Shown here: positions 1-11,442 of the stretch, one piece after another
Layout: the number at the start of each line of letters is the position of its first letter
Numbering within the stretch: position 1 is the stretch's first letter
Assembly: GCA_964510585.1 (NCBI GenBank)
Contig: CAZECW010000156.1
Location: 1 to 24,455 of the forward strand
Origin: an uncultured archaeon
GTDB lineage: Archaea > Asgardarchaeota > Jordiarchaeia > Jordiarchaeales > Jordiarchaeaceae
Length of the DNA stretch: 24,455 nt
Direction: 5' to 3'
The notes under the pieces: model-generated
What the model was told of the DNA's origin: nothing
Databases searched by the model: none
The model's input: only the letters and a program-made list of their open reading frames with translations
Made by a program: the position numbers and the translations under genes

Positions 1-63
1 ACACTTGAGGCCGCCCAGTGGGAAGTAGAATTAAAGGTCGCGGTGTACAACCAGCTCTGCTAA
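1..63 (+). CDS. 3' end of an unidentified CDS running in from the window edge (TLEAAQWEVELKVAVYNQLC*)
   Basis: Frame +1 is open from base 1 to TAA at 61-63; frames +2 and +3 hit stops within the first 30 nt. The family is not recognised. Confidence 0.4.
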   Translation, partial: TLEAAQWEVELKVAVYNQLC

Positions 64-95
64 ACCGCCACCGGAAAACCCGTGGCGGGGCAGAG
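55..95. other. GC-rich hairpin overlapping the upstream stop codon
   Basis: CTCTGCT(55-61)/GGCAGAG(89-95) helix with one T-G pair, AAA bulge, CCGCCAC(65-71)/GTGGCGG(82-88) helix, AAAA loop (75-78). No U-tract follows it. Confidence 0.55.
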
Positions 96-211
96 GAAAA
101 ACTGCACTAAAAGGAAAAAGAGATAATTATGCAACAGGGCAAACCAATCAGAACATTTTAAAAAACTAGTAATATTAAAAAGGGGCTCAAGTCTAAAGTC
201 AGTAGGTTTCT

Positions 212-1039
212 ATGGTAGTAAAATTACTGGTGATAGGCTTGACAAATCATAATAATCAAATCTTCAAGCTCTCTGAGATAAATAGAACAAAGAAACCAAG
301 AATTGAGGGAATAACAGCCATTATTGATACTGGTCAAGGCCTCCCTACAACAAAAGATGTAATTGAAGGTGCCGCGAATTATATTGATTATTGTAAGTTT
401 GGATGGGCGACTTGGCTCATACAGCCCAAAGATCTACTGAAAAAGAAGCTAAAACTCTATCATTCCCACGGAATAAAAACGCTCAGTGGAGGTTCCGCCC
501 TAGAAGCCGCTATAATTATAGGAAAAACTGAAGCGTTTCTAGAAACACTCAAAACTCTAGGATTTACCGCCATCGAAATTTCCACAGGTGTTGTTAACAT
601 ATCCCCTCAGGAAAAATCGGAACTAATAAAAAAGGCTAAACAATTAGGGTTTCAAACCGTAATAACTGAAGTGGGCAGAAAAATCAAAACTGAGGACGCT
701 CAGCTCAAAATTTCTGACCGCATAAAACAGATTCAAAATGATTTAGACTCCGGGGCGGATTATGTAACCATCGAAGCTCGGGAAAGCGGAATTGGAATAG
801 GCCCCTACGACGAGGAAGGAAAAGTAAAAGAACCATTTATAGAAGAGATCGTCGCCAAAATACCATCCAAAAAAATTATCTGGGAAGCCCCACTCAAATC
901 CCAACAGTTATGGCTCATTACACGGTTTGGGCCTAATGTAAACCTCGGGAACATAAGACCCACCGATGTTATTCCCCTCGAAACACTTCGCATAGGACTA
1001 AGGGGAGATACTATGACTAAGTTCCTAGCTAAAAAGTGA
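212..1039 (+). CDS. comA: Phosphosulfolactate synthase (ComA family, TIM barrel)
   Basis: Family motifs KFGWAT, GGSALE, IEISTG, EVGRK, EARESG, IWEAPLKSQQ, NVNLGNI. The likely true start is TTG at 239, after GGTGA. Confidence 0.93.
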   Translation: MVVKLLVIGLTNHNNQIFKLSEINRTKKPRIEGITAIIDTGQGLPTTKDVIEGAANYIDYCKFGWATWLIQPKDLLKKKLKLYHSHGIKTLSGGSALEAAIIIGKTEAFLETLKTLGFTAIEISTGVVNISPQEKSELIKKAKQLGFQTVITEVGRKIKTEDAQLKISDRIKQIQNDLDSGADYVTIEARESGIGIGPYDEEGKVKEPFIEEIVAKIPSKKIIWEAPLKSQQLWLITRFGPNVNLGNIRPTDVIPLETLRIGLRGDTMTKFLAKK

Positions 1040-1767
1040 AAAAAATGCCTCTAACTCTAAAAAAAGAATCAACGGAAAATCAAGACGGGGAAGACTTTGA
1101 GGTTCACCTCGCATTCGGGACGCGAGGGGCCTTAAGAGCAGCACAAAAAAAACACATTATAGTTCTGGTTGACACCTTAAGAGCCAGCACAACAATTACT
1201 ACTGCATTAGACAATGGGGCTAAAAAAATTATAACAGCCGCAACAGTAGAAGAGGCAAAAAAACTAGCGCAAGAAATCCGAGACAAAGTCGTCCTGGCGG
1301 GGGAAAGACAAGGTTTCAAAATTCAAAATTTTCAACTAGGAAACAGTCCACTCGAATACACACCGGAAATAGTAAAAGGAAAAATCATAATACTTACCAC
1401 CACTAACCTTACAAGAGTAGCGAACAACGCTAGAATCGCCCCACACCTTTTTATAGGTTGTTTAATTAATGCCAAATCGGTAGCCCAAAAAGCTAAAAAA
1501 ATGGCTCTAAAGACAAGAAAACCAATCACAATAATACATGTGGGAAGACTTGACGAATACGCGCCAGAGGATTACATTGCTGCCCAAATAATAAAAAAAT
1601 ACATTCAAAACAGCCCTATTCCAAAAAACATAACCCAAAGAATATACAACACGCCTAACGCCCAATACTTAACACAAATAGGATTCCAAAAAGACGTACA
1701 ATATTGCAGCCAACTAAATATCACAACTACCGTACCCACCTACAAGAATCAAGCCTTCCAGAAATAA
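1036..1767 (+). CDS. comB: 2-phosphosulfolactate phosphatase (ComB family)
   Basis: Motifs VDTLRASTTI, LAGER, GNSPLE and TTTNLT (usually TTNGT). Overlaps the comA stop by 4 nt, indicating an operon. Confidence 0.9.
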   Translation: MKKMPLTLKKESTENQDGEDFEVHLAFGTRGALRAAQKKHIIVLVDTLRASTTITTALDNGAKKIITAATVEEAKKLAQEIRDKVVLAGERQGFKIQNFQLGNSPLEYTPEIVKGKIIILTTTNLTRVANNARIAPHLFIGCLINAKSVAQKAKKMALKTRKPITIIHVGRLDEYAPEDYIAAQIIKKYIQNSPIPKNITQRIYNTPNAQYLTQIGFQKDVQYCSQLNITTTVPTYKNQAFQK

Positions 1768-1939
1768 TTAATATTTCATAATTTAAAAAATTACAGAAAC
1801 TCTTTTTACGACTATCAAAGACTCAAGTAGACTCTTTTTAGGTAAGCACCTATAAACTTACATTTCTCAGGCAGAGAATGAAAATATGTTTTTAATAGCG
1901 TATATAGGAGCTACTAGAGATACTATTTGAAGCCTATTT

Positions 1940-2641
1940 TTACTCACGGATCCAAACGACTTTGCGAGCTTCGTCCTTTTTACCCTTAAGATAGAAGAGA
2001 CGCAGACCGTACTCCCAAGCCAATTGCTGCAGAGCTACAGCACTAATACGAGTACCATCAGTTACATCTAGAATGACTTCTTTTCTGCCTATTTCTCTTT
2101 CCACAATACTCTTGGCTACTTCGTAAATCCTCTTAAAATCATGCATCGCATACTCAGGAATCCAAATAATCTCTGCATTGTCCGGCTTACCACCAATTCT
2201 AGTACGCATCTCGCTCTCCGCAATAAAAACATAACTATCAGGGTCGATTCCTGTCTGCTCCCTTAAGCGCCGCCCCACTTCCCTCACCAGTAGAGGCTCA
2301 CTGTCTAAACTGCACAAACACAAGATAGGCGCTCTAACATTCAGATACCTACGAACCGCCTGTACCATAGTGGGAACAATCTCTGCATACTTACTCTTCC
2401 ATTCACGATACCGATTAATAAGTCCACTATTTTCTAACGCCTGCAAATTAAAATACAGTTTAGCGTCACTAATATCGTCTACATTAACCCCCAACTCCTT
2501 AGCCAAAGCATCCCTAAGCTCATACCCTGTTTTGGGACCCTCTAACAACTCCTTTAAAATAATCCGACGCGCCTCAACGCCTCCAATAGCCCGTTCAACA
2601 ATCATCAAGGGATCACTCAAATCCAACACACCCAACAACAA
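1940..2641 (-). CDS. Transcription regulator with N-terminal winged HTH (PadR/ArsR-like) and C-terminal CARF-like Rossmann domain
   Basis: N-terminus RRIILKELLEGPKTGYEL...KLYFNLQALENSGLI fits a wHTH. C-terminus has CLCSLDSEP and VILDVTDGTRISAVALQQLAWEYGLRLFYL, resembling the CARF DxTxGx[KR] strand-helix-strand. Confidence 0.7.
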   Translation of the reverse strand: MLLGVLDLSDPLMIVERAIGGVEARRIILKELLEGPKTGYELRDALAKELGVNVDDISDAKLYFNLQALENSGLINRYREWKSKYAEIVPTMVQAVRRYLNVRAPILCLCSLDSEPLLVREVGRRLREQTGIDPDSYVFIAESEMRTRIGGKPDNAEIIWIPEYAMHDFKRIYEVAKSIVEREIGRKEVILDVTDGTRISAVALQQLAWEYGLRLFYLKGKKDEARKVVWIRE

Positions 2642-3183
2642 TTAAATACTGAACACCGAAGATTATTAATCTAAATAAATATTAAAACCAACCCACCAAA
2701 CTGGAAGTGGCGCCTTTTTCCCTAGACGGCAGAATGGCGCAGGACATCCACCAGGGCACGAAACTCATAATCAATACCAAATTAAAGTTCCCAACACGGA
2801 ATAATAAATCTAACCCCAAAAAAGCCCCCGATAATACCAAAAGTCAGTTTTTCACCTTCAAAAAAATAATCACTGCATCCCTCATATTCATTATAAAAAT
2901 TTAAGCGAAAACTATGCTTAGAACGATCCTGCACTACCACTCAGACACCATTCGTATAACCTTAACAAAAGAGGGAACATCAACTCTATGGATGATATCG
3001 ATGATAAAGATTAGGTAAAAAAAACATTTAAAAGAACCAAAATCAATAATATAATCAAACAAAAACTTAATTTTAAAAAGCAAGATAAAACACATCCAAC
3101 AACAATAAAACCAACCACAAAAAAATAAAATAAAAATCACTAAAAATAAAGAAATCATAAAAAAATAAAGAAGAGGAAAAAAT

Positions 3184-4338
3184 ATGGCGATAGGACCACC
3201 CGAAGAAGAACTCGTAGCCGCAAAACCTCTAGTCCTAGACAACGGCACAGGACTAACCAAAAACGGATACGCAGGAGAAGACCAACCAAGATCCGTATGG
3301 CCCACATGCATAGGCTACCCAAAATACGCCTCAATCATGACCGACGTAGAACACTACACCCGAGAATACTACATCGGAGAAGAAGCCCTAAACCTGCGAG
3401 GCGTACTAAGACTAGTCTACCCCGTCGAGCATGGTACGGTTAATGATTGGGATGCTATGGAGAAGATTTGGCACTATACCTTCTTTAATGATTTGAGGGT
3501 TGACCCTGCTGAGCACCCCGTACTACTGACGGAGGCGCCTTTGAATCCGCGTAAGAATCGCGAGAAGATGGCGGAAATCATGTTCGAGACCTTCAATGTA
3601 CCTGCAATGTATGTTGCCATGCAGGCGGTGCTTTCGCTGTATGCTTCTGGGCGAACCACCGGACTGGTGATTGACTCTGGTGACGGTGTGACTCACATTG
3701 TACCCATATATGAAGGTTTTGCACTTACTCATGCTATCACTAGGATAGATCTTGCGGGGAGAGACCTTACAGAGTATCTCCGCCGACTGCTGAGGCAAAG
3801 AGGTTATTCTCTGGTGTCGAGCGCAGAGCGAGAAATTGTGCGGGATATAAAGGAGAAGCTTTGCTACGTCGCCCTAGACCCTGAGAAGGAGTTGAAGCTG
3901 GCCGAGAAAGTTGCGGGTATGGAAAAGACGTACATGTTGCCAGATGGTGAAACCATCACCATCTCCAGTGAACGCTTTTTGGCGCCTGAAGTGTTCTTTA
4001 ACCCAGGCGTGGTAGGTCTGGATGCGATGCCTCTTGATGAGGTAATAGTGGAGTGCGTCAAGAAGTGTGATGTTGACTTGAGGCGTGACTTGTACGGGAA
4101 CATTGTTCTCAGCGGTGGCAGCACCATGTTTCCAGGCCTTAAGGAACGCCTACACAAAGAGATTAGTGAACTAGTGCCAGAAAACATTGAAATCAAAATA
4201 ATTGCGCCGCCGGAACGGATGTACTCCGTGTGGATCGGCGGGAGTATATTATCTTCTTTGAAGACTTTCCAGAAGATGTGGGTCACTCGGAAGGAGTACC
4301 AGGAGCAGGGCGCTGCTGCTATTCACAGGTGCTTCTAA
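3184..4338 (+). CDS. Actin, Asgard/eukaryote-like (Lokiactin-type)
   Basis: DNGTG and DSGDGVTH phosphate loops. Segments almost identical to eukaryotic actin: [75 protein letters not shown]-terminus HRCF. Confidence 0.97.
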
Positions 4339-4339
4339 A

Positions 4340-4660
4340 CTAGGACTGATATATCCCTTCTCTTTTTCTTTTTTCTTTTATTTGTATTTTGGAGCGGTTT
4401 CGTAATTTGTTTGTGGCTTATCCATGCTTGTTTTTCATATTTTATAGGGGTACTGTTTAGAAATTGTTACTGTTTTTTTGCTCATGATTTTTTGGGTTTT
4501 GTTTTCTGGGGTTGGTTTGGTGGTTTTTGGCATTTTTGTGGGGTTTGGGTGTCTAAATTTTTGGTGTTTCCTGTTTTGTGATGTTAGTTAGGTTTGATTT
4601 GGTGTTTTGAATTTTTGGATTTGTGTTTGTTAGGGAGTAGGGGTATTTTCTTTGTATTTA
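4340..4660. repeat. Low-complexity G/T-rich intergenic tract
   Basis: Hand count: 53 of 60 bases in 4501-4560 are G or T. Contains many T(n)G(2-4) units and no credible ORF. Confidence 0.8.
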
Positions 4661-4879: not shown

Positions 4880-6091
4880 TTATTGTTTGGGTTGGGAGTG
4901 TTCTTTTTTGGTTAGGAGGTTCATGAATTGTTCTCCTATTAGGTAGCCTAGGGCGCCTTTTTTGGCTGAGTTTTCGTCGAACGTTTGTGTTTTGTCGCCT
5001 TTTTCGTTATTACAGTATATTGCTATGGGAACAGGGTCGTTGGTGTGCGTTTTTATTTTTATGGGGGTTGGGTGATCTGGTAGAATTGCGATTTTGTAGT
5101 TATCGGCTAGGTCAGTGATATTGTTCAGGACTTTTCCTACTATTTTTTGGTCTATGTTTTCTATGGCTTTTATTTTGTTTTCTATGTCTCCGGCGTGTCC
5201 TGCTTCGTCTGGGGCTTCCACGTGGATGTAGATGAAATCATGGTTTTTTAAATGTTTTAAGGCGTATTCGGCTTTTCCAGTATAGTTTGTGTTGTAGTAT
5301 CCTGTTGCTCCTGGAACCTCTATGGTTTTGAGGCCTATTAGTTTGCCTATTCCTTTTATTAAGTCTACTGCGGATATTATGGCGCCTTTAACTCTGAATT
5401 TTTCTTTAAAGCTTTCTAGATGGGGTTTTTTGCCTTGCCCCCATGGCCATATGGAGTTTGCGGGTTTTTTTCCTTCTTGGATTCTTTTTATGTTGATTGG
5501 ATGGTTTTTTAGGATTTCTTGGGATTTTTTGATGAGTTCTAGTAGAATTTCGCTTCCTTCTCCTCTCGGAAGGTGGGGGGTAATGGTTTTGCCTGTTATG
5601 TCGTGGGGGGGTGTGCATTCTGCCCTTTCAGTTTCTTCATTCTTTATCAGTAGGATGTGTCTGTAGCTTACCCCGTTATAAAACTTTATAGAGTTGCTGC
5701 CCAGCTTTTTGTTTAATGTTTTGATGATTTCCTTTGCTTCGTTGCTGTTTATATGTCCTGCACTGTAATCTTCCATTTTTCCGCTCTCTAGTGTTACTAG
5801 GTTGCATCTAAAAGCTGTTTCTTCTCTCTTTAGTTTTATTCCTAGTGAAACCGCTTCTATAGGGCCTCTTCCTGTATAGTATTTTAGTGGGTCGTAGCCT
5901 AAGATGGACAGGTTTGCTATGTCGGATCCTGGCTGCATTTTTTCTGGGATGGTTCTAAGTATTCCGCTTTTTCCCATCATAGCGATATAATCCATGTTTG
6001 GTTTATGGGCTACTTGTAATGGGGTTTTCCCGTTCAGTTCCTCAAGGGGGTAGTCTGCCATTCCGTCTCCAATAATCACAATGTATTTCAC
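4880..6091 (-). CDS. apgM: Cofactor-independent phosphoglycerate mutase, archaeal ApgM type (alkaline phosphatase superfamily)
   Basis: IIGDGMADYP, TPLQVAHKPNMD, GSDIANLSILGYDP, GRGPIEA, HVEAPDEAGH, LPDHPTP, HTNDPVP. GTG start preceded by GGTGA. Confidence 0.92.
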   Translation of the reverse strand: MKYIVIIGDGMADYPLEELNGKTPLQVAHKPNMDYIAMMGKSGILRTIPEKMQPGSDIANLSILGYDPLKYYTGRGPIEAVSLGIKLKREETAFRCNLVTLESGKMEDYSAGHINSNEAKEIIKTLNKKLGSNSIKFYNGVSYRHILLIKNEETERAECTPPHDITGKTITPHLPRGEGSEILLELIKKSQEILKNHPINIKRIQEGKKPANSIWPWGQGKKPHLESFKEKFRVKGAIISAVDLIKGIGKLIGLKTIEVPGATGYYNTNYTGKAEYALKHLKNHDFIYIHVEAPDEAGHAGDIENKIKAIENIDQKIVGKVLNNITDLADNYKIAILPDHPTPIKIKTHTNDPVPIAIYCNNEKGDKTQTFDENSAKKGALGYLIGEQFMNLLTKKEHSQPKQ

Positions 6092-6457
6092 AGATGGTCA
6101 CCGATGCTCTAAAATTGACTCTTATAATTTTAAAAATGTGGGGGGTTTCATATCTTCTATGTATCTTTGTAAACTTAGTCAGTAGCTTTATTTAAAATTG
6201 ATTCAGGATCATGAAAAGCAGGTTAACTCGGGGTTTATTTGAGGTTTTTAGTCGCTCATAACTCGAGAATTTTTTAGTTAGGTTGGTTTCAGTTCCCAGC
6301 ATTACCAAAAATTGTAAGTTACTATCCTCCAAGGCGAATGAGGAAGAACAGGGGAAAATAGCTAAGAAAACAAGTTTAACACTTCGCTCGGGTAAAAATT
6401 AAATTCACACTGTGACAAGATATTTTAGTTTTCATTAATTTCTTTTCTGGAGGGATT

Positions 6458-6961
6458 TTGTTGCCTTCTCAAGTTGGTGTCATTGGAAGTGATGGTAACA
6501 TAAGCGAAAGGGTAAAGATTCTGGCCCAGAAGATAGGGCGACTGATTGCTAATCGAGGAATGATTCTTGTCTGTGGGGGTCACTCGGGTGTGATGGAAGC
6601 TGCAGCTAAAGGTGCAAAACAGGAAAAAGGTATTACTGTTGGAATTATACCTGAAGGGGATAGAAGGTGGGCTAATCCGTTTTGCGATATTGTAATTGCT
6701 ACGGGTATTGGTAGAGCTAGGAACCTAGTGATTGTAAATTCAAGTGATGTTTTGGTTGCAATATCGGGAGGACCCGGTACACTGTCTGAGATAGCTTTAG
6801 CTCTTGCGGAGAAAAAGCCGGTCATTGTGTTGAAGGGATCAGGAGGGGTATCTGATTTGCTCGCAGGCAAAATGATTGGAGATTCTAAAGTTTTGGAGGC
6901 TGAGTCTCCCGAAGAAGCGATAAATCTAGTTTTAAAAATTACCAAAAAGTTGGTTACTTGA
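6458..6961 (+). CDS. LOG-superfamily nucleotide-binding protein (TIGR00725-like)
   Basis: VCGGHSGVMEAAAKGA, ATGIGRARNLVIVNSSD, GGPGTLSEIALA. Confidence 0.88.
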   Translation: MLPSQVGVIGSDGNISERVKILAQKIGRLIANRGMILVCGGHSGVMEAAAKGAKQEKGITVGIIPEGDRRWANPFCDIVIATGIGRARNLVIVNSSDVLVAISGGPGTLSEIALALAEKKPVIVLKGSGGVSDLLAGKMIGDSKVLEAESPEEAINLVLKITKKLVT

Positions 6962-6966
6962 TACTA

Positions 6967-7674
6967 CTAGAATACTCTTTGGGTGAATATACTTGTGGCT
7001 AATATTCCTAGGGTAAAGGACAGCCAGAAAAGTAGTACTGATGCAATAGCATATATAAATGGGTGTTTTGTTTCTGCAACTTTTGCGGCGGAATATGATG
7101 TTATTACGCTTATTGTACACAGGGTGACTAGTGTGGGCCAATAAATTCCAAGTTGAAATCCAATTATGCGTATCGTTAAGAATTGATATTGAAAAATGTT
7201 TGAGGATATGGAAAATAGCGGTGCGAGGGAACTAATTAGCCCCATTATGGCTGAGGCGGTAGCTGAAAGTATCTTTATTTTAAATAATTGTGCTTTGAGT
7301 TGATTCTTACGCTCCTCTACCAGTTGTTGGTCTTCTCTTATTTCCCATATGGTTCTTTCGAGCATTTTACCTGTTTCTCGAGAATTTTTAGTTAAAGCCT
7401 TCTTGACTAACCATAATATTCTTCTAATTTGAGCATTGCCAAATAATTTATCAAAGTGGTCCCAAACCTCTTCTAGCGAAGAACTCCCTAGGATAACTTC
7501 GTTAGCTATAGATGTTAGCTGCTCTTTTAATGGCCCCGAATAGCTCTTAGCCGCTATATTCAAAGAGATTTCTGGGCTTTTCCCCCTTTTTAATTCTTCA
7601 CTAAAGTAAGTTAGAAAGCTCAAAATCTCTTGGAAAATTTCTTCGTTTTCAAGCTCCATCTCATACTCCTCCAT
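6967..7674 (-). CDS. Type II secretion system F domain membrane protein (TadC-like)
   Basis: Segment ELKRGKSPEISL...GPLKEQLTSIANEVILGSSSLEE fits the T2SSF helical pattern. About three C-terminal hydrophobic helices. Co-oriented with the secretion ATPase. Confidence 0.75.
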   Translation of the reverse strand: MEEYEMELENEEIFQEILSFLTYFSEELKRGKSPEISLNIAAKSYSGPLKEQLTSIANEVILGSSSLEEVWDHFDKLFGNAQIRRILWLVKKALTKNSRETGKMLERTIWEIREDQQLVEERKNQLKAQLFKIKILSATASAIMGLISSLAPLFSISSNIFQYQFLTIRIIGFQLGIYWPTLVTLCTISVITSYSAAKVAETKHPFIYAIASVLLFWLSFTLGILATSIFTQRVF

Positions 7675-7722
7675 TTATTAGATAGAATCTTATATCTACA
7701 CTAATTTTTGGTTACATTCCAC

Positions 7723-8619
7723 CTAATTGTAAGTGTGTTTTGGTTTTGTTTCTAAGATGTTAGTTTTGTTGCGTGTAACGAATCGTTCAAGAACCACTAG
7801 GATCACAACATGCATTGGTATTATCACTAAAAAGAGTGGATTTGCACCTAGCCCCCTTATTAATAATCCTAGAGATATTACTATGGGTATAAAGAAGCCT
7901 ATGCCCATTACTATGAGTAAGCGTGCTTCGAGTTCTAATGTATGCCTTTGATATTCGTTTCTAATTTCACGCTGTGCGATTCTCACGGTTTTTTCAGCGA
8001 AATCATCAGAGATTTCTGTAGATTTTAGTATTGTGGGAATGTGGATTTTTAGGGTTTCTGTGGGTTGATTGTGAGCAAAGTTTACAAGCAACTTCTCTGG
8101 TTTTTCGCCCGAGTTAACCCAGTTTGCTATTTTTTTGAATTCCTGAGAAATAAGGGGATAATCCGCATTAGCTACAAATAGAATAAAATCAAAAATCGAC
8201 CCCGTGGAAGACAATACGAAGAGGAGTTCTTCCAAAATGAAGTCAGCGTAGCGAGCCACTGTCCAACGATTTTCGGTATATTTCTTCGGAAAATACGTCA
8301 ATACATAATTGCATGCAAAAATGAACATTGCTAGTGAAAGCACAGCAGCTAATAGTATATTAAAAAAAATTCCTACAGTTAGAGTCAAAATAGATAGGAA
8401 AAGGCCGAGTCCTAATGCGCCTCCAGCAACTTCTTCGGCTGTGACTTGCCCTTCTTTAAAAAAATGGTCTATAGAAAGTATCAACTCTCTTGAGACCATT
8501 CTTTTACCAATTTTTCGTAAAGTATTATTTTTTCCGAAGAATTTAGATACTCTGACTATAGGTTTTGATTTTATAACCTTTTTATTTCTTCCATTATTGT
8601 CCTTCTTATACTTTCCCAA
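7723..8619 (-). CDS. Type II secretion system F domain membrane protein (TadB-like)
   Basis: N-terminal TM pair, then STGSIFDFILFVANADYPLISQEFKKIANWVNSGEKPEKLL (T2SSF pattern), then a C-terminal TM pair. TTG start after GGAGTGG; overlaps the ATPase end by 49 nt. Confidence 0.78.
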   Translation of the reverse strand: MGKYKKDNNGRNKKVIKSKPIVRVSKFFGKNNTLRKIGKRMVSRELILSIDHFFKEGQVTAEEVAGGALGLGLFLSILTLTVGIFFNILLAAVLSLAMFIFACNYVLTYFPKKYTENRWTVARYADFILEELLFVLSSTGSIFDFILFVANADYPLISQEFKKIANWVNSGEKPEKLLVNFAHNQPTETLKIHIPTILKSTEISDDFAEKTVRIAQREIRNEYQRHTLELEARLLIVMGIGFFIPIVISLGLLIRGLGANPLFLVIIPMHVVILVVLERFVTRNKTNILETKPKHTYN

Positions 8620-11291: not shown

Positions 11292-11442
11292 TGGTGCTCC
11301 GGCCGGGAGGTTCGGATCAACACACGGTGTTAATCATTCGAACCCGGGTCGAGGAGGCGAGTAGGCAGGCGTTCTAATCGACCGCCAAAAGCCCCTTATG
11401 CTTAGCCAGTAATCTTATTTGGCCGGACTACACCACCGGAGC
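11292..11442 (-). tRNA. tRNA-Glu(UUC) with three introns (positions 21/22, 34/35, 59/60) and encoded CCA
   Basis: Removing 11402-11418 (17 nt), 11361-11388 (28 nt) and 11309-11336 (28 nt) leaves a 78-nt cloverleaf: GCTCCGG TG GTGT AGTCCGGCCAA GCAT A AGGGG CTTTCGC CTCCT CGAC CCGGG TTCGAAT CCCGG CCGGAGC ACCA. Each intron has a 4-bp central helix with 3-nt bulges. Confidence 0.92.

Follow-up and report, generated by a model that had tools for sequence, protein, structure and literature searches.

Among the described regulators, the Csa3 proteins (Csa3a and Csa3b), CRISPR-associated transcription factors of the Sulfolobales built of a CARF and a winged helix-turn-helix (wHTH) domain, offer the obvious comparison for the protein considered here. 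In Csa3 the CARF domain precedes the wHTH domain (PMC8699464), and in the dimer the CARF pocket binds the cyclic oligoadenylate cA4 and controls transcription (PMC8699464, PMC8844856). We have analyzed a stretch of 24,455 nucleotides from an Asgard archaeon (contig CAZECW010000156.1; the whole stretch is called the window in the following), in which a gene for a protein of 233 aa with the same two types of domain lies head-to-head with an actin gene of the lokiactin type. We know of no account of how the expression of Asgard actin (lokiactin) is controlled; prior work has dealt with the filament itself and with the proteins that bind it (profilin, gelsolin). We propose, with a probability of roughly 0.6, that the protein is a homodimeric, probably ligand-gated wHTH-CARF transcription factor which is dedicated to the divergent actin gene and derived from a CRISPR-type sensor. 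As such it would be the first concrete candidate for a switch by which a signal controls the expression of actin in archaea, and among CARF-domain transcription factors it would be new in architecture, context and target.

Csa3 and the window protein both combine a CARF domain with a winged helix in about 210-230 aa. In the window protein, however, the wHTH domain comes first, the gene lies away from cas genes and is paired with actin, most of the hosts are without Cas10, and by sequence the CARF domain is nearer to Card1 and Can2. These two proteins and VC1899, in which CARF is fused to a PD-(D/E)xK nuclease, provide the best structural and sequence matches, but the window protein is without a nuclease, has an N-terminal wHTH domain as output, reads DVTDGTR and not TGGTK in its signature loop and is encoded in a non-CRISPR context. 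The bacterial regulator RtcR, a CARF-AAA+ sigma54 activator-HTH protein, senses tRNA fragments with cyclic-phosphate ends. Like the proposed regulator it is a CARF transcription regulator outside CRISPR, and it is generally known to act on the neighboring divergent operon; its AAA+ sigma54-interaction domain is, however, absent from the window protein, whose 233 aa hold two domains only, so that the architecture is not that of RtcR. Archaeal regulators of the PadR/ArsR/RosR kind resemble the N-terminal domain in fold (RosR, 6ez1, Z 11.8; Phr, 2p4w, Z 9.5), but dimerize by C-terminal helices and have no CARF domain. Asgard genomes also contain type III-associated wHTH-CARF paralogues (contig C100 of genome G120 and contig C29 of genome G241; P0029-P0036) with the same architecture, about 210-225 aa and homology over both domains. 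Unlike the window protein these carry a DLTGGTK loop, are encoded 2-9 kb from Cas10 and not near actin, and form a separate branch.

The AlphaFold2 model of the window protein, computed with 11 homologues (pLDDT, the predicted local distance difference test, 83.8; pTM, the predicted template modeling score, 0.78), has two domains. A structure search with residues 3-102 found winged helices of the ArsR/PadR/RosR type with Z scores of 10-12, among them RosR, HlyU and CzrA with 11-12. Pfam PadR matches residues 28-80 with an E value of 1.6e-5, and its 25.2 bits against a cut-off of 27 are under the gathering threshold, so that the protein is not assigned to the PadR family (PF03551). In the model the N-terminal domain folds as a generic winged helix, like those of ArsR, PadR and MarR. 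It is the best-conserved part of the protein, with a mean frequency of the top residue of 0.60 as compared to 0.40 in the CARF domain, and all of 63 orthologues share R25, L29, G35, G39, Y63, N65, L69 and R97.

For residues 103-233 the ten best matches among 48,161 chains were all CARF proteins (Z 12.1-13.9, root mean square deviation (rmsd) 2.4-2.9 Å, 108-127 residues aligned), so that the domain has the Rossmann-like alpha/beta fold with parallel sheet of the solved CARF structures. With VIA-align we found Can2 (8bao, Z 13.9; 7bdv, 13.3), VC1899 (1xmx, 13.8), Csm6' (12.8), Card1 (6wxw, 12.7) and Csa3 (6wxq, 10.6), and further matches are Cam1, Cdn1, Csm6, Can1, Cad1, Csx1 and Crn1, the rmsd of the full set being 2.4-3.1 Å over 108-129 residues. 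Foldseek agrees, returning Csm6, Cdn1, Card1 and Can2 with E values of 2e-4 to 5e-4. A profile of the CARF domain only retrieved from the PDB sequences Can2 (E 1.7e-4), Card1 (1.1e-3), the CARF-PIN protein SiRe_0806 (1.8e-3) and Cdn1 (2e-3); the profile of the full-length protein gave nothing useful against the same sequences. Among 24 family members Pfam recognizes CARF_Card1 in nine (best 1e-8), HFX_2341_N in five and Csa3_N in four, and for the window protein alone the CARF hints are sub-threshold only (HFX_2341_N in Pfam, 0.048; TIGR02710, 'CARF protein', in NCBIfam, 0.0098). An earlier note on this DNA, made from its letters alone, had described an N-terminal wHTH and a C-terminal CARF-like domain in an order inverted relative to Csa3, and had quoted the segments CLCSLDSEP, VILDVTDGTR and RLFYL. 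Both domain assignments and the inverted order are borne out by these comparisons, and all three segments are found in the translation of 1940-2641(-).

The CARF signature reportedly follows strand beta4 and reads [DN]x[ST]xxx[RK]. The corresponding loop of the window protein, D192-V-T-D-G-T-R198, fits this pattern, and in a profile alignment the loop of the family (D-x-T-G-G-T-K) aligns with NVTGGTK of Can2 and Card1. D192 and G196 are retained in 88% of the orthologues. The remark of the earlier note that TDG stands in place of the usual TGG is correct for the actin-linked clade, which has TDG or TCG at this place; distant members carry DLTGGTK. At the end of beta1, the place of a polar or small-residue motif in CARF proteins, the protein reads LCLCSLDSEP; in the sequence alignment of the family the consensus here is G-x-L-x-x-E/D-P, and good conservation is limited to P105 and P116.

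The homodimer was modeled with a score of 0.61 as compared to 0.01 for the best control (partner pLDDT 88; the runs share at least 66% of the contacts); among proteins of solved structure, 20 of 30 homodimers and one of 23 monomers reached the mark used for this score. The modeled interface lies wholly in the CARF domain (residues 167-169, 193-209, 215-220 and 229-231), and the signature loops meet on the two-fold axis with R198 facing R198 (2.3 Å expected error). The model thus supports a homodimer paired through the CARF domains, and its passing of the mark may reflect the likeness to solved CARF dimers. In CARF structures the ligand pocket is located on the dimer axis. Gating of the protein by a ligand is plausible but not secure. 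The better conservation of the wHTH domain, the position of the conserved CARF residues D192, G196, A203 and A208 in the predicted interface and the degenerate signature of the Thorarchaeia orthologues, which have lost the glycine and the basic residue (lysine/arginine, position of R198), would also suit a constitutive dimeric wHTH factor whose CARF domain has ceased to be a sensor and is a dimerization module only. We regard this as unlikely, as the D-x-T/S-x-G-x-R/K loop is kept across the classes outside Thorarchaeia and the prediction sets R198 of one subunit opposite R198 of the other on the axis of the dimer, the binding place of CARF ligands.

We found 13 relatives among 5.8 billion proteins and 24 clusters among 1.8 billion cluster representatives, and recorded proteins with 100% and with 90% identity to the 233-aa protein exist. 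Relatives that carry a name are entered as hypothetical, 'HTH domain-containing' or 'PadR family', with no mention of CARF in any annotation; they come from metagenome-assembled genomes of Frey/Jordarchaeia, Baldr-, Odin-, Thor-, Hel- and Asgardarchaeia. A profile of the family matches 176 of 400 Asgard genomes (62 of 85 genera), and orthologues are present in about 122 of the 400. Strong full-length matches occur in the GTDB families which we label f1-f6, f14-f17, f26, f27, f30 and f31, where f1 is the window's own Frey/Jordarchaeia genus, f2 a Jordarchaeales group with 62% identity, f5 and f6 are Baldr, f16 is Helarchaeales, f27 Odin and f31 Thorarchaeia. The source genome of the window has one copy of the gene. 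In a maximum-likelihood tree 65 sequences of the actin clade split from 13 paralogues with a support of 97 (SH-aLRT, Shimodaira-Hasegawa-like approximate likelihood ratio test). A literature search found no description of the wHTH-CARF family or of the regulator-actin gene pair, CARF classification surveys being outside its reach.

We searched the DNA around the orthologues by tblastn with the actin, comA, comB and iPGM proteins of the window. The regulator and actin are arranged head-to-head in 50 of the about 60 loci inspected, and the adjacent actins are 68-100% identical. The arrangement is present in all six genomes of the window's genus, in 2/2 of f26, 3/3 of f6, 6/6 of genus g27 of f14 and 3/3 of f4, in f5, f3 and f30, in 4/4 Odin genomes plus a 712-kb ENA contig, and in all 23 Thorarchaeia loci sampled, which come from 16 genera. 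Since related genomes are not independent observations we prefer the count by families, which gives about ten head-to-head, one adjacent and co-directional (f15) and three separated; in f17 (one genome) actin lies 3.3 kb from the regulator, and in f2 and f16 it lies elsewhere. The unlinked members of f2, f16 and f17 nest within the actin-linked clade of the tree, and the linkage to actin is therefore ancestral and was secondarily lost. A divergent pair which is kept across class-level lineages usually shares a control region. The spacer between the two genes is 107-594 bp long in the other lineages with a head-to-head arrangement, and the gene beyond actin, iPGM in the window, is not conserved in these loci.

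Actin is not the only recurring neighbor. comB, often together with comA, is the convergent neighbor in f1, f2, f3, f4, f16 and genus g28 of f14 (loci L002, L018-L022, L025, L031, L037-L040 and L045), and it remains so even where actin has moved off, which suggests an ancestral order comA-comB> <regulator actin>. The adjacency to actin could hence be inherited gene order without a regulatory link, the factor controlling only itself, comAB or distant genes, and the loss of the adjacency in f2 and f16, where both genes survive, would agree with this. We consider such an explanation improbable. Apart from the pair, these classes do not share their gene order, downstream of actin for instance; a dyad in the spacer, described below, tracks the TATA box of actin at a fixed distance and not the start codon of the regulator, and it stays with actin in f2; and comB is convergent, so that there is no common promoter. 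The latter arrangement, tail-to-tail, also speaks against control of comAB, which the earlier note had put forward beside control of actin; comAB was rejected as a target, and the adjacency of comB is probably remnant synteny outside the actin circuit.

The alignment of five genomes of the genus contains a near-invariant block of about 90 bp with diverged flanks, which holds the core promoter of actin and a dyad of 26 bp with the halves CTCTATGGATGAT and ATCGATGATAAAG. Five deep lineages (Jord, Odin, f26, Baldr f6 and f14) share this dyad, our candidate operator, in the same register, and each spacer of Jord, Odin, f26 and the two Baldr families contains its core GATATC a single time. In Baldr f6 it is a near-perfect palindrome (ATATAGATGAT and ATCGTCTATAT), and in f14 it has perfect arms of 11 bp (CATCTCTATCA-N10-TGATAGAGATG) in register with the Jord element (CTCTAT-N3-TGATAWCGW-TGATARAG). 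The TATA-like box of actin starts at +31 from the dyad centre in the window genome and Odin and at +30 in f26 and Baldr f6, and the distance from the dyad to the regulator start codon varies from 35 to about 390 bp across the lineages. Helical phasing between dyad and TATA-like box was considered and rejected, as the spacings of +20 (f2), +30/31 (four lineages) and +38 (f14) are not multiples of one turn. In the window actin appears to have a long, A-rich 5' leader (3034-3183), which would reach the ATG at 3184 after some 120 nt and has a 20-bp tandem repeat at 3085-3130.

A symmetric position weight matrix (PWM) was built from the five lineages. It scores the f30 spacer with 20.1, and upstream of the unlinked f2 actin genes it finds a related dyad with 14.7 and 8.1 (p <= 0.013 by shuffling), about as far from the ATG as in the linked pairs. 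Upstream of actin in L. ossiferum, Harpocratesius and other Lokiarchaeales, which have no orthologue of the regulator, the PWM finds no dyad, with one AT-rich exception. The actin dyad, itself part of the training set of the PWM, is the best site in the 3.78-Mb genome with 29.0, the next reaching 19.1; the lack of a second strong site suggests a local regulon. The simple pattern TATRG-N2-GATATC occurs twice in the genome as compared to about six times expected by composition and is uninformative alone, and the palindrome GATGATATCATC on contig C76 was discarded as it sits inside a coding open reading frame (ORF). The suggestion of the earlier note that the protein is functionally linked to actin, with which it shares a divergent region of 542 bp, has thus gained a gene pair retained in most Asgard classes and, in front of the TATA box of actin, a conserved dyad; the coordinates of the region were found as described.

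From these observations we infer that the regulator binds the dyad, the basis being the co-conservation of the two. The target would be the divergently transcribed actin gene and probably also the regulator's own gene. The paired CARF domains would set the two winged helices of the dimer on the dyad, and a dimer with two winged helices would indeed fit such an operator. The dyad is centered at about -60 from the expected transcription start (span about -48 to -74), just upstream of the transcription factor B recognition element (BRE), where the bound dimer would modulate the recruitment of TBP and TFB. In archaea sites upstream of the BRE are more typical of activators, and because of this position of the dyad activation would be the likelier direction of control. 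A small ligand in the axial pocket would alter the winged-helix geometry and thereby adjust the transcription of actin. The compact spacer of Odin, with 35-40 nt between the dyad and the start codon of the regulator, would allow autoregulation. The actin-linked pair and the operator-like dyad give a defined protein, DNA site and pocket for ligand screening, and they make the question of which signal governs the actin cytoskeleton of archaea testable in vitro without a cultured host.

Several points weigh against this proposal. The adjacency has been lost in f2 and f16 while both genes are retained, and Lokiarchaeales including L. ossiferum keep actin without an orthologue, so that by the genome comparison the regulator is not essential for actin expression in general. 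On the same basis the operator is not universal: the PWM finds no dyad in the actin upstream regions of f16 and f17 and no convincing match in the Atabey-like f4 spacers (107-112 bp), which have back-to-back TATA boxes only, or in most Thorarchaeia. In the Thorarchaeia, whose regulator is the most divergent of the orthologues, another dyad, rich in TA, lies some 45 bp upstream of a well-conserved actin BRE/TATA (AAGGCTTAAATA). The dyad could also be the site of another factor or an upstream element of the promoter. The CARF signature is degenerate in Thorarchaeia and the CARF domain is less conserved than the wHTH domain, and this domain may have a dimerization-only role in some or all lineages. 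The evidence from RNA is weak, amounting to one contig of a metatranscriptome library over 2171-2699; contigs of this kind, each a small share of its library, do not allow transcript ends or levels to be read. As a side observation, the actin leader of Thorarchaeia (L047-L069) is about 90 nt long, with TAGCACAGAGTT conserved close to the expected start and with GAGGA as Shine-Dalgarno sequence. If the proposal is right, the absence of the regulator from the Lokiarchaeales (including L. ossiferum) and other families predicts that actin regulation differs between the lineages.

The relation of the regulator to CRISPR signaling deserves separate consideration. The 24-kb window contains no cas gene and no repeat array, as the earlier note had stated, and in none of the orthologous loci inspected does a cas gene stand beside the regulator, so that its placement is not that of Csa3 in a cas locus. 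The characterization of the protein as a stand-alone, non-CRISPR regulator holds for its position outside any cas locus, but not for the genome as a whole and its relatives: other contigs of the source genome encode type III CRISPR components including Cas10 (HD and palm2), Cmr2_N, RAMPs, Cas1 and a Csm6-like CARF-6H-HEPN protein, and related genomes have paralogues at the side of Cas10. Judging from these genes, signaling by cyclic oligoadenylates probably exists in the source organism. Weaker wHTH-CARF paralogues with the canonical DLTGGTK loop are encoded 2-9 kb from Cas10 in the genomes G241 (two loci), G195, G182, G120 and G116. In G120 (locus L116, contig C100), a sister genome of the same genus, for instance, a paralogue of 224 aa (2483-3157(-)) lies about 2 kb from a Cas10 of 933 aa (5274-8075(+)), and comparable pairs are found in the Lokiarchaeales genomes G241, G195 and G182. 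In the source genome contig C213 has an ORF of 511 aa (2896-4428(-)) with two profile-matching stretches (E 1.9e-27) and a MarR/ArsR-type HTH at residues 262-309, which may be a tandem or fused wHTH-CARF paralogue.

These genes, and the fact that the nearest structures to the CARF domain are receptors for cA3, cA4 and cA6, could be taken to mean that the protein works as a Csa3-like type III regulator, with cyclic oligoadenylate made by Cas10 upon infection binding to the CARF dimer and switching the transcription of actin and of the regulator itself, by which the antiviral alarm would be coupled to the cytoskeleton. The genome survey makes this very unlikely. The Cas10 palm domain is present in 69 of the 400 Asgard genomes and in only about 25 of the about 122 with an orthologue (f14, 0/19; f4, 0/3, with two single-contig genomes; Thorarchaeia, 12/89), and the incompleteness of metagenome-assembled genomes weakens single absences but not the overall pattern. 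Because about 80% of the orthologue-bearing genomes are without Cas10, a CRISPR cyclic oligoadenylate cannot be the general ligand. Moreover, the regulator never adjoins cas genes in the inspected loci, and in the actin-linked clade TGG of the signature is replaced by TDG or TCG.

We therefore return to the dedicated actin regulator of CRISPR-type descent. The simplest history would be a type III-associated wHTH-CARF regulator, one lineage of which was re-used at the actin locus; this clade would have split from the type III CRISPR-associated regulators and would now stand outside CRISPR signaling. More tentatively, and with somewhat less than even confidence, we suggest that the re-use took place in the ancestor of most Asgard lineages, where the sensor domain for a CRISPR second messenger would have become the input of a ligand-gated transcription factor dedicated to the eukaryote-like actin. 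If this is true, Asgard cells tune the production of their cytoskeleton to an intracellular nucleotide-type signal other than the product of Cas10. The regulator would then be a clean archaeal example of a CARF domain outside antiviral defense, with the CRISPR-linked paralogues still present for comparison. The positions of the features are collected in Table 1.

Table 1. Features of the regulator-actin locus (window positions) and of the type III CRISPR contigs in the source genome (contig positions)
Feature	Position	Strand	Details and basis
wHTH-CARF protein gene	1940-2641	-	233 aa, 233 codons; stop codon 1940-1942; TTG start 2641; alternative in-frame ATG (codon 13) at 2605; ORF list and translation
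wHTH domain, residues ~14-102	2336-2602	-	Pfam PadR and fold matches
CARF domain, residues ~103-233, with predicted homodimer interface	1943-2335	-	structure and profile matches
CARF signature loop D192-R198 after strand beta4	2048-2068	-	fits [DN]x[ST]xxx[RK]
Divergent intergenic region common to regulator and actin	2642-3183		542 bp
Near-invariant block, ~90 bp, within the genus	2973-3062	+	alignment of five genomes of the genus; holds dyad and actin core promoter
26-bp dyad, candidate operator	2984-3009		GATATC core 2994-2999; in register in five lineages
Actin TATA-like box, TTTAAAA	3027-3033	+	preceded by an A-rich BRE-like tract
Actin (lokiactin-type), proposed target gene	3184-4338	+	Pfam Actin, E 3e-137
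comB (2-phosphosulfolactate phosphatase), convergent neighbor	1036-1767	+	Pfam 2-ph_phosp, E 5e-59
Cas10 (874 aa), then RAMP	contig C108 of source genome (G000), 1-3313		
RAMP and Cmr2_N	contig C147 of G000, 34-2144		
Cas1	contig C92 of G000, 3250-4233		
Csm6-like CARF-6H-HEPN	contig C210 of G000, 308-1999		

Of the two possible starts of the regulator gene the upstream TTG is favored, as codon 13 is Ile in a sister genome of the window organism. The earlier note had also considered that the protein senses RNA ends with a cyclic phosphate, and had pointed to a multi-intron tRNA in the window. Specific evidence for such sensing did not emerge, and tRNA splicing takes place in all archaea; ARAGORN and Rfam detect neither a tRNA nor an RNA family in the window, and at 11292-11442 no tRNA is reported by ARAGORN or by Rfam at the gathering threshold, which multiple introns could explain. 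SLOG domains are a further class of predicted nucleotide-binding sensors, and a stand-alone protein of the SLOG family is encoded 2 kb downstream of actin at 6458-6961(+) (Pfam LDcluster4, E 4e-46).

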